Positions 6,870 through 61,998 of a stretch of DNA of 64,000 nt are shown piece by piece; the stretch's first letter is position 1, and each line of letters opens with the position of its first letter. The DNA comes from Planctomycetota bacterium (GTDB taxonomy: Bacteria; Planctomycetota; MHYJ01; WSZJ01). The stretch spans positions 128,001 through 192,000 of the forward strand of contig JBBTCT010000001.1 in assembly GCA_038060895.1 (NCBI GenBank), written 5' to 3'. The notes under the pieces are model-generated. The model did not search any database and was not told the origin of the DNA. It was given only the letters and a program-made list of their open reading frames with translations. Both the position numbers and the translations under genes were made by a program.

Positions 6870-8789
6870 ATGCAGGACATCTTCAATATCGTCATCGGGA
6901 CCGCGGGGCACATCGACCACGGCAAGTCCACGCTGGTCCGCAAGCTGACCGGCATCGATCCCGACCGCCTCCCGGAGGAAAAGGAGCGCGGCCTCACCAT
7001 CGACCTCGGCTTCGCGCCCTTCACGCTCAAGGACGGCCGCCGAATCGGGCTCATCGACGTCCCGGGGCACGAGAAGTTCGTGAAGAACATGGTCGCGGGG
7101 GCAACGTCGCTCGACGGCGTCATCCTCGTCATCGCGGCGGACGACGGGATCATGCCGCAGACGCGGGAGCACCTGAACATCCTGCGGATCCTGGACGTGA
7201 AGCGCGGGATGGTGGCACTGACGAAGATCGACATCGCGGAGCCGGACATGCTGGAGCTGGTGGAGGACGAGATCCGGCAGATGCTGCAGGGGACGTTCCT
7301 CGAGGCGGCGCCGATTTTCCGGGTCAGTTCGCACACCGGCGCGGGTTACGAAGCCCTGATCGACGGGATCAACAAACTGGCGGTCGCGACGCCGCCGCGC
7401 ACGACCGAGGGCGTATTCCGGATGCCGATCCAGCGCGTCTTTTCGGCCAAGGGGTTCGGGACGATAGCCACAGGAGTCCCGATCACCGGGAAGGCGAAGC
7501 TCGGCGACACTGTTGAAGTCCTCCCGCTCGGAAAATCGTCGCGCATCCGCGGCCTCCAGGCCTACAAGGGCGATGTCACCGAAATCCGCGCCGGACACTC
7601 TTCCGCCGTCAACCTCTCGGACATCGATCACGCCGAGGTCATCCGCGGCATGGTCATGGCCACCCCCGGATACCTGCACGCCGCCGATCACGTCAACGCG
7701 CGCTTCCGCTTCCTGAACGAGGAAGTTGGCCGGCTGAAGAACGGCGCCGCGGTGCGCCTGCACACGGGGACGGTGGAAGGCCTCGGGACGCTCAACCTCG
7801 TCGAAGGGCAGGATCTCGTAGCGGGAACCGACGCGCTGATCCAGATCCGGCTCGCCGAGCCGGTCGTCGTCGCGGCCAACGACCTTTTTGTGCTGCGCCT
7901 CCAGTCGCCGACGGTGGTTCTCGGAGGCGGGCGAATCCTGTCATCGACGCTCGGCCGGCCGAAGATGAACCGGGCAAAGCTGGTGGAAGATCTCAAGGGA
8001 GCGGAAGCGTCATTGGGTGACTCACGCAAGACCCTCGAGCACCTGATCCGCCGGGCCGGCTCGGACCCCGTGTCGCTCGACTCGATCGCGAAGCAGTCGC
8101 TTCTTCCTATCGCTCAGGCATGGGACCTCGTCGGCGGCCTCAAGCAGAAAGGGCTGGTCACGGAGCTGCCCGAGACGAAGCGGCTCCTGCACCGCGACGG
8201 CCTTGCCGCCGCTGCGGGCGAAATCACGAGGACGCTCGAGGAGTTCCACAAGACGAATCCGGTTTCGGTCGGCATGGAGAAGATTCCTCTTCGCACCGCC
8301 AGCGGCCTGGACCCGGAGGCGTTCGAGGCGGGGCTTGCGCTCGCGCGCAATTCGGGGGGCGCGGCCGAGGAGCGCGGGCTGTGGCGCAAAGCGGCCCACG
8401 CGGTCGCGCTGACTGCGGAGCAGGAGAAACTGATCGAGGCGGCGCGCAAGCTGCTGCTTGCCGACAAGTACGCGACGCCTCGCGTGGACGAAATGGCCGG
8501 GAAGCTCGGGAAGACGCCGCAACAGGTGGACAAGCTTCTCAAGCTGATGATGCAGACCGGCGAGATCGTGAAGCTGAAGGACGACATCCTCCTGCACCGG
8601 GACGCCATTGCGGAAGCGGTGGAGACGGCGCGGAAACTGTGTACGGAAAAGGGAGAAGTCGGCCCGAGCGAGTTCCGCGACGCGATGAAGACCAGCCGGA
8701 AGTACGTGATTCCGCTGCTGGAGCATCTGGATGCAATCGGGGTGACGGTCCGGCAGGGGGACAAGCGGGTGCTCCGGGCTTCCCCGTGA
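6870..8789 (+). CDS. selB: Selenocysteine-specific translation elongation factor SelB
   Basis: 'IGTAGHIDHGKS', 'DRLPEEKERGLTIDLGF', 'IDVPGHEKFVKNM' and the C-terminal SECIS-binding winged helix 'FRDAMKTSRKYVIPLLEHLD...R.GD.R'. Confidence 0.96.
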   Translation: MQDIFNIVIGTAGHIDHGKSTLVRKLTGIDPDRLPEEKERGLTIDLGFAPFTLKDGRRIGLIDVPGHEKFVKNMVAGATSLDGVILVIAADDGIMPQTREHLNILRILDVKRGMVALTKIDIAEPDMLELVEDEIRQMLQGTFLEAAPIFRVSSHTGAGYEALIDGINKLAVATPPRTTEGVFRMPIQRVFSAKGFGTIATGVPITGKAKLGDTVEVLPLGKSSRIRGLQAYKGDVTEIRAGHSSAVNLSDIDHAEVIRGMVMATPGYLHAADHVNARFRFLNEEVGRLKNGAAVRLHTGTVEGLGTLNLVEGQDLVAGTDALIQIRLAEPVVVAANDLFVLRLQSPTVVLGGGRILSSTLGRPKMNRAKLVEDLKGAEASLGDSRKTLEHLIRRAGSDPVSLDSIAKQSLLPIAQAWDLVGGLKQKGLVTELPETKRLLHRDGLAAAAGEITRTLEEFHKTNPVSVGMEKIPLRTASGLDPEAFEAGLALARNSGGAAEERGLWRKAAHAVALTAEQEKLIEAARKLLLADKYATPRVDEMAGKLGKTPQQVDKLLKLMMQTGEIVKLKDDILLHRDAIAEAVETARKLCTEKGEVGPSEFRDAMKTSRKYVIPLLEHLDAIGVTVRQGDKRVLRASP

Positions 8790-57917: not shown

Positions 57918-58415
57918 TCAGGCCACGCCGCCCGCGGGCTGCATCAGGGCGACGACCGCGCCGGTCGGGTCCTTGAAGATGCAGAAGCGACCGACGTTGG
58001 GGATGTCCGAGGGCGGATGGATGTGAGTCCCGCCGAGCTCGGCGATCTGCTTCCATGCCGCATCGATGTCGCGCACTGCGATGTACCCGCACCAGTGCGT
58101 CGGCACCTGCGCCGGGAACTGCGGCTCGGTCATCTTCAGGATGCCGGCGGCGGACTTCCCGCCCGCCTTCGTCACGCGATACGGCGCCTGGCCCGGCCCC
58201 ATCGGCCAGTCCTCGTGCGTCCACCCGAGCAGCTTCTCGAAGAACGTGAGCGCGGCCACGTCGTCGCGCGTCATCAGCTCGTTCCACATGAACTCGCCGT
58301 GTCTCGGTTTAGGGTTCATGCTGGAAGAAGCGGGCGCGGCGGCTTTCTTGCGCGCGGGTTTGCGGGCGACACTTCTTGCCGTCTTCATTGGAGATTTCCG
58401 GGACCTTTTCGCCAT
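57918..58415 (-). CDS. VOC/glyoxalase family protein with a basic N-terminal tail
   Basis: 'GEFMWNELMT.D...A..FF..LLGW', 'W.GYIAV.DID', 'PP.DIPNVGRF....DPTGA'; GGAGG RBS before the ATG at 58415. Confidence 0.88.
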   Translation of the reverse strand: MAKRSRKSPMKTARSVARKPARKKAAAPASSSMNPKPRHGEFMWNELMTRDDVAALTFFEKLLGWTHEDWPMGPGQAPYRVTKAGGKSAAGILKMTEPQFPAQVPTHWCGYIAVRDIDAAWKQIAELGGTHIHPPSDIPNVGRFCIFKDPTGAVVALMQPAGGVA

Positions 58416-58461
58416 GAACACCCTCCTATCTTTGGATGATTGCGTCGACGCTACGAGAACT

Positions 58462-59229
58462 TTATGTGGGAACTCCCAGCACCACAGCAACGCGCCAAAC
58501 GGATTGGGGCTTGGCGACTCCCTTCAACTCAACTTGCTCCTTGCTCTTTGCCAAGTTGTTTTGTGGCAGCTCAGGCTCAAAAGCACTCAGAAGACCTTCC
58601 GCATCAATGAGAAGCCCGAAGTCAGGGGCGGCCTGCTGCAGGCGTGCCGCCATGAAGATCGTTCGCCCTACGGGTGCGAGCCAGGCACCGATCTGCGGGT
58701 TTCCACCGCAGAAACGAACCTCGATCGGTCCGCGTGTGACCCCGAATCGGCCATCGACCATGTCCGAGTCGTTCAAGATCAGCGCGCCACCAAGGTTGAC
58801 CGTTCGCGTCTTGGGATTCCTGTGGGGCCGACGATTTGCTCGCACTGTCTGGTAAGCGACAAGAAGATTGATGATGCCCTTGGCAGCTTCATATTTGTCG
58901 GAGGAGTTCGGAAACCGGTCGCCGAGGTTGAACATCAGAAAAAAGCCATCACCCGTGGCGGTTACCAGGTCGGGAGGGAATTGGCGAATTAGAGCAAGAA
59001 GTTCAAAAAGCAAGTCGGACTGGGCAAGCCACGAGGGATCCGGAGTCGCCTTTTCGTCCATGACCTTTGAAGTGCTGGATTTCATGTCCCACGAGACGAC
59101 AAGTGTGTCTGCCCACGCTTCGAACATGGCTTGGTCGGGACTCGTCAAGGTGGGGATGTGACCAAGCGGCTTGCTTCGGTCACGTCCGACGATTCCAAGC
59201 CATGAGCCGAAGATGTGTGGGTTAAGCAT
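58462..59229 (-). CDS. Stand-alone class III nucleotide cyclase-like protein (low GC)
   Basis: 'VVSWDMKSST', 'TGDGF', 'GRTIFMAARLQ', 'VELKGV..P..VW' follow the class III cyclase order; AT-richer than the flanks. Confidence 0.7.
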   Translation of the reverse strand: MLNPHIFGSWLGIVGRDRSKPLGHIPTLTSPDQAMFEAWADTLVVSWDMKSSTSKVMDEKATPDPSWLAQSDLLFELLALIRQFPPDLVTATGDGFFLMFNLGDRFPNSSDKYEAAKGIINLLVAYQTVRANRRPHRNPKTRTVNLGGALILNDSDMVDGRFGVTRGPIEVRFCGGNPQIGAWLAPVGRTIFMAARLQQAAPDFGLLIDAEGLLSAFEPELPQNNLAKSKEQVELKGVAKPQSVWRVAVVLGVPT

Positions 59230-59308
59230 GGTCACCTGAATTCTCAAGGGCAAGGAGGACAAACACTTTAACTCCCACTGGTGGGTGACCGTTCGGGATT
59301 GCCGGGCG

Positions 59309-59602
59309 TCAAGATGTCGATCCTCCCGATATCGCCGGCACGAACGCGATCTCGTCCCCTTCCTTCAACTCCACGAGGAGCGACTTCATCTCGCGCGTGT
59401 TGTTCTCGTTGAGGAAGCAGAGCACGTGCGGCCGGAACTTCCCGTTGTCCTCGCACAGGTGAAATCTCAGCGCGGGCGCGGCGAGAAACGTGGCCTCGAT
59501 CGCCCCGGCGAGCGTCGCCGCCTCCACGCGGAGTTTCTTCGACCCCACGATGGCGTGCAGCATCGAGGGGATCAGGACGTCCACGGAGACGCTCTTCGCC
59601 AT
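59309..59602 (-). CDS. MoaD/ThiS-family ubiquitin-like carrier protein
   Basis: 'V.IPS.L', 'G.FRPHVLCFLN', 'LKEGDEIAFVPAISGG' followed by an STS tail; starts 2 nt after the upstream stop. Confidence 0.9.
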   Translation of the reverse strand: MAKSVSVDVLIPSMLHAIVGSKKLRVEAATLAGAIEATFLAAPALRFHLCEDNGKFRPHVLCFLNENNTREMKSLLVELKEGDEIAFVPAISGGSTS

Positions 59603-59604
59603 GG

Positions 59605-60729
59605 CTACACGACGGCGGCGCTGACCGAAAGGACGGGGGGCAGGTACGAGGCGAGTGCCTTCCAGGAGCGCCCGGCGTCCGCGCTGTTGAAGACCTGGCC
59701 GGTGCCGGTCCCGACGTAGAGGCCGCACGGGTCCAGGGAATCGGACGACATTCCCTCGCGCAGGACATTGAGGTACGCGCCGCTTGCCGGCAGTCCCTTG
59801 GACATGGACTTCCAGCCGCCGCGCGGTCCGTTCCAGCGGAACACGCGGAACGCCCCGCTCGTGGCGCGGTAGGCGTAGTTGTTCTTCTTCTCGAGCGGGA
59901 CCGTGAAGCATGTATCGGGGTCGTTCCAGTCGAGAGCGAGCCCGAATCCGTAGTCCGTCGGGAGCCCCATCTCAATCGAATTCCAGGTCTCGCCGTGGTC
60001 GTCCGTGCGGAAAACGCCGACGTGATTCTGCTGGTACGCGCGCCCCGGCACCGCCGGGTGCAGAATGAGTTTGTGCACTCAGGTCCCGACGTCCGTGACC
60101 TTCGGCGCGCCGGGATACTTCGCGACCGCCTTGTTGATCGGCTTCCAGTTCTTCCCCCCGTCGTCCGTCCGGAACGCCCCCGCGGCCGAAATCGCCACGT
60201 ACATCCGCTTCGAATCGTGCGGGTCGAGCTGGATCGTGTGGCAGCACATCCCGCCCGCTCCCGGGCTCCACTGCTTCCGCGTCGGGTGCTCATTCAGGCC
60301 CGGCACCGGCTCCCAGGTCTTCCCTTCGTCCTCGCTCCGGAACAACCCCGCGGGCGCCGTCCCCGCGTACAGCACGCCCTTCTCCCCCTTCCGACCAGGC
60401 TCGATGTGCCAGACCCTCTCGGCCTTCGAGATGCCCCATTTCTTGTAGATCTTTTCGTGGGACGGAAGCGGCTTCGGCGGAATCGGCGGCTTCTTCGCGC
60501 CTGTGAACTTCGCGTCCTTCAGGCCGGCGCTGAAAGTAGAAGCGGCGAACACGTCGCTGACCGCGGCGGCGTGGATCTTCGGCGAGCGGCGGGCATCGAC
60601 GGTGGCGTGGTAGATCGACCATCCCTCGAGGAACGGTCCGCGCCGCTTCCACTCGCGGCGCTTTGCGGACGACTCGAACACGAACAGCCCGCGCTTGGTG
60701 CCGACGCAGACGACGACCTTGTCCGCCAT
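59605..60729 (-). CDS. BNR/Asp-box (sialidase-like) beta-propeller, predicted selenoprotein (U217)
   Basis: Track ORFs 60079-60729 and 59605-60078 are in the same frame and separated only by TGA at 60079-60081, giving 374 aa. Asp-boxes 'SEDEGKTW', 'TDDGGKNW', 'TDDHGETW', 'SADAGRSW' occur on both sides. A SECIS-like hairpin follows the TGA. Confidence 0.75.
60025..60066 (-). promoter_or_regulatory. Candidate bacterial SECIS element
   Basis: Starts 12 nt after the UGA: lower stem AUUCUGC/GCAGAAU, upper stem CCCGGC/GCCGGG, apical loop GGU beginning 26 nt after the UGA. Confidence 0.65.
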
Positions 60730-60798: not shown

Positions 60799-61224
60799 CT
60801 ACTCGGACTTTGCTTTCTTCTCACGCATCGCATCCACGCTCATCGGCCCGGAACCCTTGCAGGCCATGAACAGGAAGAGGAAGCAGTAGAGCACCGCCGG
60901 TTCGCCGCCGTTCGTTCCGGGGAGGAACCTCGAGATGCCCTCCACCTTGCTGTTGACGACGTGGAACTGCCAGTAAGCGACGGCCATGGTGCCGCTGGCG
61001 AGGAAGGCGGCCGTGCGGCCGAAGAAGCCGATGGCGATCATGAGGCCTGTCACCAGCTCGATGATCCCGCCGGCCTTTCCCTGCGAGTCCAGCTGCGAGA
61101 ACGACATCTTCGAGAGCACGCCGAAGACTTTTTGCATGCCGTGAAACGCGAACATTCCGCCCGAGACGATGCGAACCAGGGCGTAAACGCGGTCCGCTAT
61201 GGGAGCCAGCATGGAACCCAGCAT
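60799..61224 (-). CDS. DoxX family membrane protein
   Basis: 'RIVSG.MF..HG.QK.FG', 'AG.IELV.G', 'AAFLASG.MAVAY', 'NGGE.AVLYCF.FL...G.GP.S.D'. Confidence 0.9.
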   Translation of the reverse strand: MLGSMLAPIADRVYALVRIVSGGMFAFHGMQKVFGVLSKMSFSQLDSQGKAGGIIELVTGLMIAIGFFGRTAAFLASGTMAVAYWQFHVVNSKVEGISRFLPGTNGGEPAVLYCFLFLFMACKGSGPMSVDAMREKKAKSE

Positions 61225-61461
61225 GTATCCCTCCTCCGTTCAGGCATTGGCGCGATTCACGAGTGCTCAGGAACATCCCGCGGCGAATGAGGCTCCCTTT
61301 TACCCTGAAGCGCCCTCAACGTCACGGTCAGGTTCCCGTGAAGTCGGAGGTCGGGCCAGAAGCAGGGTGGAGCTGCCCAGGGAAGTTCGCCGGTGATTTC
61401 GCGGACTTCCGCGTCCGCCGCGCTGCAATACCGCTCTCGCGCTTATGATCGCCGGCAAAGA

Positions 61462-61998
61462 ATGAAGCGCCGCAAGCCCCCGCAGGACCACACCTCCGCC
61501 GCTCCCCCCGAGATCGCCTGCCGCGTCATCGGCCACGTGCGTTCCCCCTACAAGGAGCGCTTCGGCACCCCGCGCCAGCCGTCCGTCACCGAGCAGACGC
61601 TCGAGGACCGCGCGCTCGAGGCGAGCATCGAGCTCCTCCCGGGGCAGAACTTTGAGCAGGCCCTCAAGGACCTCGCGGGATTCGAATACATCTGGGTGCT
61701 CGCCTGGCTGCACCTGAACGAGGGATGGAACCCGCAGGTGATTCCGCCGCGCGGTCCCGAGGTCAAGCGCGGGCTCTTCGCCACCCGCGCGCCGCACCGG
61801 CCAAATCCCATTGCGCTTTCGGCTCTTCGGCTCGTCGGCATCGAAGGCCGGATCCTCAGGATTTGCGGCATCGACCTGCTCGACGGCACGCCGGTGCTCG
61901 ACATCAAGCCCTACATTCCCTATTCCGACGCGTTTCCGGACGCGAAGGCCGGCTGGCTCGAAGGGTTGGATCCCGGCGCACCCGACCGGTGGAAGTAA
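61462..61998 (+). CDS. trmO: tRNA (t6A37)-N6-methyltransferase TrmO/TsaA
   Basis: 'IG.V.SPY.E.FG.PRQ', 'RGLFATRAPHRPNPIALS', 'GIDLLDGTPVLDIKPY'. Confidence 0.92.
   Translation: MKRRKPPQDHTSAAPPEIACRVIGHVRSPYKERFGTPRQPSVTEQTLEDRALEASIELLPGQNFEQALKDLAGFEYIWVLAWLHLNEGWNPQVIPPRGPEVKRGLFATRAPHRPNPIALSALRLVGIEGRILRICGIDLLDGTPVLDIKPYIPYSDAFPDAKAGWLEGLDPGAPDRWK

Follow-up and report, generated by a model that had tools for sequence, protein, structure and literature searches.

Two kinds of described system bear on the gene treated here. It lies on the minus strand of a 64,000-nt stretch of a Planctomycetota contig (JBBTCT010000001.1, positions 128,001 to 192,000; the whole stretch is called the window below), and its product, a seven-bladed Asp-box beta-propeller, very probably carries selenocysteine (Sec) at residue 217. 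The first kind is the bacterial selenoprotein. In the catalogued examples treated in the main text of PMC13188914 (SelD, MoeB and rhodanese-like proteins), UGA stands at a conserved Cys, Sec and Cys forms are mixed among the relatives, and a hairpin with G first in a small loop lies 16-37 nt downstream; the propeller family shares these traits. The bacterial model of the selenocysteine insertion sequence (SECIS) set out there has a loop of 3-9 nt, a stem of 4-16 bp, G in the first two loop positions, a distance of 16-37 nt from the UGA and a minimum free energy (MFE) of -7.5 kcal/mol or less (PMC13188914, main text). According to the same text, most characterised selenoproteins have a thioredoxin-like fold, unlike the propeller family (PMC13188914). 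A Sec-containing propeller would therefore add a beta-propeller to a selenoproteome dominated by thioredoxin-like folds.

The second kind of system is the sulfur-carrier two-gene module, of which MoaD-MoaE, ThiS-ThiG and CysO-CysM are examples. The propeller locus resembles these in that a Gly-Gly beta-grasp protein is encoded beside the enzyme that it is predicted to bind, and in that its E1-like activator has its gene at another site in the genome. It differs in the nature of the partner, a propeller, in the carrier's own R-x-H-x-L-C motif, and in the extension of 6/19 carriers past the Gly-Gly. To our knowledge, no beta-propeller has been described as a carrier-dependent enzyme, and we know of no R-x-H-x-L-C motif in canonical MoaD or ThiS.

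For the propeller itself, the only close solved relative is 3b7f, a full-length homologue (template modelling (TM) score 0.88, profile E = 2e-110, 32% identity). This is Reut_B4987 (YP_299179.1) of Ralstonia eutropha JMP134, a structural genomics target named 'putative glycosyl hydrolase with BNR repeats'. PMC2716378 lists it as a single 7-bladed Asp-box propeller of family 'Not known'. It retains His148, His164, His219 and the Q-Q-N-H motif, four His in all. However, it has Asp in the Cys/Sec column (G-H-D-P-H-C vs G-T-U-V-H-K), is without the Cys of GGxCLH and is not a selenoprotein.

An in-frame UGA at an invariant cysteine

The initial annotation of the window had seen a single frame split by one TGA, with no other lesion in either half, with Asp-box repeats on both sides, and with the UGA at the conserved Cys of a G-x-C-V-H motif. 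Each part of this description bears out. Translated with TGA as Sec (U), the frame contains a lone U at 217 (...PKVTDVGT-U-VHKLILHP...YQQNH) and no stop earlier than its TAG, so that the TGA is the sole in-frame interruption. With translation table 11 the gene instead yields two open reading frames (ORFs) of 216 and 157 aa. The protein has four clear S/R-x-D-x-G-x-T/S-W boxes, two on the 5' side of the TGA (RSEDEGKTW, 131-139, and RTDDGGKNW, 187-195) and two on the 3' side (RTDDHGETW, 241-249, and NSADAGRSW, 348-356). The TGA is also unchanged in independent sequence. A DNA contig from a different study spans 60006-60488 with zero differences, and a contig from a metatranscriptome library spans 60021-60347, again with zero differences. 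The latter establishes presence in an RNA library, which by itself does not prove transcription.

The alignment column is that of a strictly conserved Cys. A search of a collection of 5.8 billion proteins scored 7988 relatives, and the best 120 were aligned with the query. Cys occupies position 217 in 106 of these (motif G-[TSQ]-C-V-H-K), and 13 other database proteins (65-85% identical), like the 216-aa fragment of the window itself, terminate exactly there. Residue conservation was counted over the 104 homologues of at least 300 aa. Cys217 is present in 104/104 (G-x-C-V-H-K), as are His164, His219 and His236; His148, Gln233, Gln234 and Asn235 are each found in 103/104 and Lys220 in 101/104. 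The upstream GGMCCH motif that had also been pointed out exists. Its His164 is the invariant one just mentioned, and Cys162 of this GGxC(L/C)H element is Cys in just 75/104. The protein search cannot display Sec forms at full length; the many close Cys forms that it does list reach 82% identity. The Cys form of the family is widespread in Acidobacteriota, Actinomycetota, Chloroflexota and Gemmatimonadota.

Independent TGA-bearing orthologues had been proposed as a check, and they are numerous. A relative at E <= 1e-40 turned up in 105 of 401 sampled genomes of the phylum. Of the 19 top places, at 52-100% identity, 16 contain a single TGA and 3 contain none, and in 16/16 the TGA is the U codon of G-[TS]-U-V-H-K. 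These TGA-bearing orthologues come from 10 or more taxonomic families within the phylum. A metagenome scan, of which the best 80 of 280 relatives were kept, added 46 close loci with TGA (37) or TGC (9) at codon 217, and 34 more distant ones with Cys in 31; in the other 3 the motif was not located by the script. The combined close set therefore holds 53 TGA and 12 TGC/TGT codons among 65 orthologous loci, or 51 Sec forms and 12 Cys forms when counted as distinct 66-nt segments, a ratio not to be taken literally, given that these rows share ancestry and that close Cys forms are plentiful in the protein search. A single-protein pattern scan of genome contigs found no close orthologues, and its loci served as Cys controls alone. 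They comprise a 40%-identity subfamily, mostly from Acidobacteriota, with Cys in 39/39 loci, and 9 distant loci without the motif.

The same column is TGA in a second paralogue clade (G-Q-U-V-H-K), found in three genomes, this one and two relatives. The copy in this genome (L182, on contig C42) is followed by a different hairpin, GCGGGCGC-CGGGU-GCGCCUGC, 13 nt past the UGA, and has its own adjacent ThiS-like gene ending ...AVSGG. The genes that come next there, named by eye from their translations, are an ArsR-like regulator and a low-molecular-weight-phosphatase-type ArsC-like gene. A third paralogue in this genome, on contig C22, has Cys. Two further TGA-bearing paralogue matches were considered: L181, which was set aside as a 3b7f-like protein without the Cys and with its TGA elsewhere, and L180, in which the script did not locate the motif.

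A quick maximum-likelihood tree of 83 rows (unrooted, short search) unites the orthologues with a support of 100 in the Shimodaira-Hasegawa-like approximate likelihood ratio test (SH-aLRT). Within this clade 12 Cys forms are scattered among 53 Sec forms, and the second Sec clade stands apart from it. The tree requires at least 11 changes between Sec and Cys (9 forced by branches with good support), compared with a mean of 23 after shuffling. The simplest reading of this unrooted tree is that Sec was repeatedly replaced by Cys.

What if the TGA is a true stop? In this scenario the locus would be a split gene, whose 216-aa and 157-aa half-propellers assemble, or a pseudogene. Table 11 does yield two ORFs, the second of which can start at the GTG right after the TGA, and gene callers have given 216-aa proteins for 13 relatives. 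However, the break coincides with the codon of the invariant Cys in 53 loci and again in the second paralogue clade, no other stop or frameshift is seen in the frame, and both halves are intact in orthologues of down to 52% identity. Furthermore, the codon 3' of the UGA is GTC, GTT or GTA, and hence not a start, in 9/51 distinct Sec forms, which excludes a conserved GTG restart. With a downstream hairpin that appears to be under synonymous-site selection in the TGA forms only (see below), a true stop is most improbable.

The downstream hairpin and the selenocysteine machinery

The initial annotation had proposed that the geometry downstream of the UGA fits the bacterial SECIS model. It does so on all the published constraints. 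The element of the window has a 3-nt loop (GGU) that begins with G, a stem of 6 bp plus 2 more across a bulged A, a spacing of 26 nt and a folding energy of -14.8 kcal/mol (nt 16-48 past the UGA). Its inner part starts 20 nt past the UGA and lies over the codons for H-P-A-x-P-G. The stem-loop originally drawn was larger, and only some of it stands. The inner CCCGGC/GCCGGG stem and the G-first loop at 26 nt hold. The outer stem, AUUCUGC/GCAGAAU, does occur in the window sequence (60066-60060 with 60031-60025) but is not conserved. Across the 51 Sec orthologues 59.7% of its cells are paired, with no two-sided change, and its first pair is found in 1/51. The outer 7-bp stem was therefore rejected, leaving the short inner hairpin as the functional element. 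A continuous 9-bp helix was also rejected, its three lower pairs holding in one sub-clade only.

One way to judge such a hairpin is to compare Sec and Cys forms of the same gene. The mean MFE of nt 16-48 is -15.1 kcal/mol in Sec forms vs -9.0 in Cys forms (Mann-Whitney p = 3e-6, for rows that are related and not independent). In a control window, nt 34-66, the means are -6.3 and -6.7. A hairpin of -11 kcal/mol or lower is present in 50/51 Sec forms vs 3/12 Cys forms and a G-first loop in 47/51 vs 5/12. The first Pro codon is CCG in 49/51 vs 7/12, and the second in 45/51 vs 4/12. In a fixed register, 96.1% of the cells of the 6-bp core stem are paired across the 51 Sec orthologues.

Several Sec forms have compensatory or re-registered hairpins that alter the peptide, which is A-A-P-G in the window. 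The hairpin is CCCGGA-GGU-UCCGGG in L038 (E-V-P-G), CCCGGG-GGUC-CCCGGG in L136 (G-V-P-G) and CCGGCCA-GGUC-UGGCCGG in L114 and L133, where the peptide is A-R-S-G and the second Pro is gone. L034 has the stem UCCGGC...GCCGGA, and in L118 the stem is register-shifted. Conservation of the hairpin among TGA-bearing orthologues was another check suggested at the outset, and Sec forms do keep the inner hairpin, whereas it is relaxed in Cys forms. These comparisons indicate that the hairpin is selected at synonymous sites in the TGA forms only. Decoding of UGA217 as Sec, by way of a short SECIS inside the reading frame, is thereby shown on comparative grounds.

The cellular requirements are present as well. 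In this genome, which is 86.5% complete, selA (541 bits), selB, selD (364 bits) and tRNA-Sec (71.7 bits) all score above curated cut-offs. The selB noted in the window at the start is confirmed by TIGR00475, whose two matches (G000:C1:134888-136000 and 136481-136777) lie in one 670-aa open frame and together give 344.3 bits, above the cut-off. The accompanying question about selA, selC and selD is answered by selA, tRNA-Sec and a selD that itself contains Sec. In selD (L002) the UGA is followed, starting 12 nt past it, by GGGUCC-GGC-GGACCU, a 6-bp stem with a GGC triloop. This hairpin and that of the propeller gene have the same C-GGN-G apex, which fits a single SelB recognising both elements. 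Elsewhere, selA and tRNA-Sec are found in 15/15 other TGA-bearing genomes; counting this one, selA is found in 16/16.

A different possibility is that the TGA is read as Cys, Trp or Gly, through a change of code or near-cognate suppression and not by the Sec machinery. The Cys alignment is also compatible with Cys being inserted at UGA. However, the neighbouring ThiS-like gene itself stops with TGA (59311..59309), so TGA still works as a stop. In addition, the genome has the full Sec machinery, and the UGA is accompanied by a SECIS-type hairpin that resembles the genome's own selD element. Insertion of another residue is thus hardly credible.

Several observations weigh against decoding as Sec. 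The folding energy of the 75-nt region is ordinary when set against shuffled sequences (z = -0.43, with 67/200 shuffles folding as well), so the case for more than chance has to come from the comparative data. The shuffle test is uninformative in G+C-rich coding DNA, and the comparison of Sec with Cys forms was used instead. Because there is so little variation in the core stem, its covariation is modest, with 3 cells changed on both sides. The conserved peptide H-P-A-x-P-G overlaps the hairpin, and the conservation is therefore partly protein-driven. One Cys form, L027, retains an equally stable hairpin. Finally, selA is above the cut-off in 285/401 genomes of the phylum, from which use of Sec appears to be unusually common there. 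Co-occurrence consequently discriminates poorly, and the Sec machinery is a necessary condition that is satisfied, not a discriminating one.

Nevertheless, the gene very probably encodes a genuine selenoprotein, decoded with Sec, whose family has yet to be catalogued. The CCCGGC-GGN-GCCGGG hairpin 20 nt past the UGA, with its 6-bp G+C stem closed by C-G, would recruit SelB with Sec-tRNA(Sec), and the ribosome would then make one 374-residue beta-propeller in which Sec217 replaces the invariant Cys.

Is the family new as a selenoprotein? The initial annotation did not recall it among established selenoproteins, and the available sources agree. The main table of the 2026 catalogue, with 119 prokaryotic selenoprotein families, contains no BNR, Sortilin or propeller entry and no U-V-H-K motif (PMC13188914). 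The main texts of PMC13188914, PMC9312934, PMC12013277, PMC5029168 and the BSepDB paper (PMC13326102) mention no BNR, sialidase, propeller or glycosyl-hydrolase selenoprotein. None of the NCBIfam selenoprotein models matches the protein, and a full-text literature search returned, in the text that it indexes, no paper tying BNR, sialidase or propeller to selenoproteins. The supplementary lists (BSepDB Table S2, and S9 of PMC4807772) might include the family. With those lists aside, the family is apparently undescribed as a selenoprotein, albeit within a known kind of system. Annotation pipelines split the gene, as in the 13 relatives recorded as 216-aa proteins, and the family would be mis-annotated wherever Sec is used.

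The propeller active site and its ThiS/MoaD-like partner

The protein matches Sortilin-Vps10 (41.9 bits) and BNR (38 bits) in Pfam, and its AlphaFold2 model has a predicted local distance difference test score (pLDDT) of 91.7 and a predicted TM score of 0.92. Automatic annotation labels the family 'exo-alpha-sialidase', and an ESM Atlas search with a natural Cys homologue returned automatic names only. An identity as GH33 exo-alpha-sialidase was rejected. The sialidase domain PF13088 has no match to the protein at E <= 0.01, and solved sialidases match weakly by profile (E about 2e-3); catalytic residues were not mapped singly. No NCBIfam model is above its cut-off, the F510_1955 glycosylhydrolase reaching 56 bits (cut-off 175) and Ycf48 23.5 bits. 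Likeness to Asp-box glycosidases (GH33 sialidases and GH74 xyloglucanases), to Ycf48 and to sortilin is confined to the repeats and the propeller fold, with a TM score of about 0.55-0.58 at 12-17% identity for GH74. The original suggestion of a family other than simple glycosidases seems reasonable. Sec at 217 would itself argue for redox, chalcogen-transfer or metal chemistry over glycoside hydrolysis.

Where might the active site be? Sec marks catalytic residues, so Sec217 points to it, and in a very large family (the 7988 relatives scored). In a propeller blade the Asp-boxes sit between the third and fourth strands, and the opposite face is the usual active-site face. From the model we infer that residues 162-164 and 217-219 begin the innermost strands of two neighbouring blades and that residues 233-236 end a second strand. 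This would place Sec217, His148, His164, His219, Gln234 and His236 on the face opposite the Asp-boxes. Sharing that face, Sec217 and the invariant His and Gln residues may together form an active site at the propeller hub.

The second component is the ThiS/MoaD-like protein encoded just downstream (Pfam ThiS, 32.5 bits, cut-off 22.5). A ThiS-like gene adjoins the propeller gene in 19/19 orthologue loci, and is adjacent in 35/39 loci of the distant Cys subfamily. Beyond it, no conserved neighbour was found within about 6 kb of the 19 loci or within 3 kb of the 39. This strict pairing defines a concrete two-protein system, in which the ThiS/MoaD-like protein is the probable partner of the propeller. 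The sequence A-x-S-G-G is invariant in the 19 carriers. It forms the very end of the protein in 13/19 and is followed by an extension in 6/19 (S-T-S in the window). The carriers also hold the R-x-H-x-L-C motif, which is invariant too. In L024 (2615-3379) the ThiS-like protein runs past the Gly-Gly into a domain of about 155 residues, SRPBCC or Aha1-like by eye.

The modelled complex is that of a natural Cys-form pair, from L027, whose propeller is 65% identical to that of the window. It scores 0.63, compared with 0.01 for the best of 3 controls; a mark of 0.63 is reached by 58/80 solved complexes and 2/110 mismatched pairs. All contacts (100%) are reproduced between runs, and the partner has a pLDDT of 88. 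On the propeller side the contacts fall at residues 34-37, 58-66 and 75-83; on the carrier side they include the invariant Arg and His of R-x-H-x-L-C. The model thus supports binding of the ThiS/MoaD-like protein by the propeller, and by homology the window's own pair would be expected to bind likewise.

What this module does is a more speculative matter. Perhaps propeller and carrier together transfer sulfur or selenium, or perform redox chemistry, with involvement of the carrier's activated C-terminus, the Gly-Gly probably being activated by an E1-like enzyme encoded elsewhere. Sec217 and the invariant histidines would be the active site, where Sec would outdo Cys as a nucleophile or leaving group. 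A carrier-dependent chalcogen-transfer mechanism of this kind is put forward tentatively. Equally tentative is its more specific form, an unrecognised carrier-protein-dependent system in which Cys/Sec217 would attack a thiocarboxylate or selenocarboxylate on the carrier's Gly-Gly and pass on or reduce the chalcogen. If true, this would be the first beta-propeller selenoenzyme, with a new kind of sulfur-carrier partner. Two observations speak against it. Residue 217 is outside the confident contacts of the complex, which is in any case modelled from another genome's Cys-form pair. Since Cys217 is absent from the contact list, the model is neutral on whether the carrier tail enters the active site. 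In addition, the Asp in the Cys column of 3b7f means that a thiol or selenol is not universal in the wider family.

The main alternative to chalcogen transfer is a metal centre. Here Sec/Cys217 and the invariant histidines would bind a metal (e.g. Cu, Fe, Ni, Zn) at the hub. Formate dehydrogenase and [NiFeSe] hydrogenase are precedents for Sec as a metal ligand. The ThiS-like protein would serve as a structural subunit or as a sulfide donor that builds or repairs the site, and the gene would still be that of a selenoprotein. In favour of a metal are the near-complete conservation of His148 and the complete conservation of His164, His219 and His236 along with Cys217 (103/104 and 104/104, as above). 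3b7f keeps the four His with Asp in the Cys column, and a Cys/Asp swap is common among metal ligands. The presence of Cys at position 162 in just 75/104 homologues also argues against an obligatory dithiol or selenosulfide pair. However, no metal-binding family was matched in Pfam or NCBIfam, and the strictly conserved Gly-Gly end of the partner suggests carrier chemistry and not a purely structural role. A metal centre is put forward just as tentatively, and rated slightly below chalcogen transfer.

Returning to carrier-dependent chemistry, candidate activators do exist. The genome contains three ThiF-family E1 genes and a JAMM-type peptidase gene, none of them adjacent to the propeller gene. 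The best ThiF/MoeB-type E1, on contig C22, has an in-frame TGA of its own (...FAPG-U-NEAGVLG) and a rhodanese-like stretch upstream. This TGA presumably lies at the conserved MoeB/ThiF Cys and matches the catalogued MoeB selenoprotein, to whose family the E1 probably belongs. TGA forms of it were found in 5/18 related genomes searched. A strict link between a TGA-bearing MoeB-type E1 and the Sec propeller was rejected, the two occurring together in just 5/15 other Sec genomes.

Features and flanking genes

Table 1. Features of the propeller locus and of related loci in the same genome. Positions are those of the window unless a contig is given.
Feature	Position	Strand	Remarks
Selenoprotein gene	59605..60729	-	7-bladed Asp-box (BNR / Sortilin-Vps10 type) beta-propeller, 374 residues, Sec at 217
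Stop codon of propeller gene	59607..59605	-	TAG
Sec codon UGA	60079..60081	-	codon 217, motif G-T-U-V-H-K
SECIS core hairpin	60042..60061	-	GC, bulged A, CCCGGC (60058-60053), loop GGU (60052-60050), GCCGGG (60049-60044), GC; outer two pairs extend the 60058-60044 stem to 60061-60042; loop starts 26 nt past UGA
ThiS/MoaD-like beta-grasp protein	59309..59602	-	97 aa, ends ...AISGG-STS, 2 nt downstream of propeller gene
selB, Sec-specific elongation factor	6888..8777	+	TIGR00475; not part of propeller locus
selD	G000:C2:48628-49548 (outside window)		itself a selenoprotein (...CAG-U-ASK...), L002
Second Sec-containing paralogue	G000:C42:8076-9155 (outside window)		G-Q-U-V-H-K, L182
Best ThiF/MoeB-type E1	G000:C22:311324-312028 (outside window)		in-frame TGA (...FAPG-U-NEAGVLG), rhodanese-like stretch upstream

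The remaining genes around the module are less constant. An ORF of 266 aa (58462-59262, minus strand), directly 3' of the ThiS-like gene, has no Pfam match and was not found in the flanks of the other orthologues. The locus is also flanked by genes for a DoxX-family membrane protein (60799-61224), a glyoxalase/VOC-family protein (57918-58490) and a TrmO-type tRNA methyltransferase (61393-61998). DoxX lies beside the module in 3/19 loci only. In the distant Cys subfamily, an HxlR-like regulator is present in 13/39 loci.

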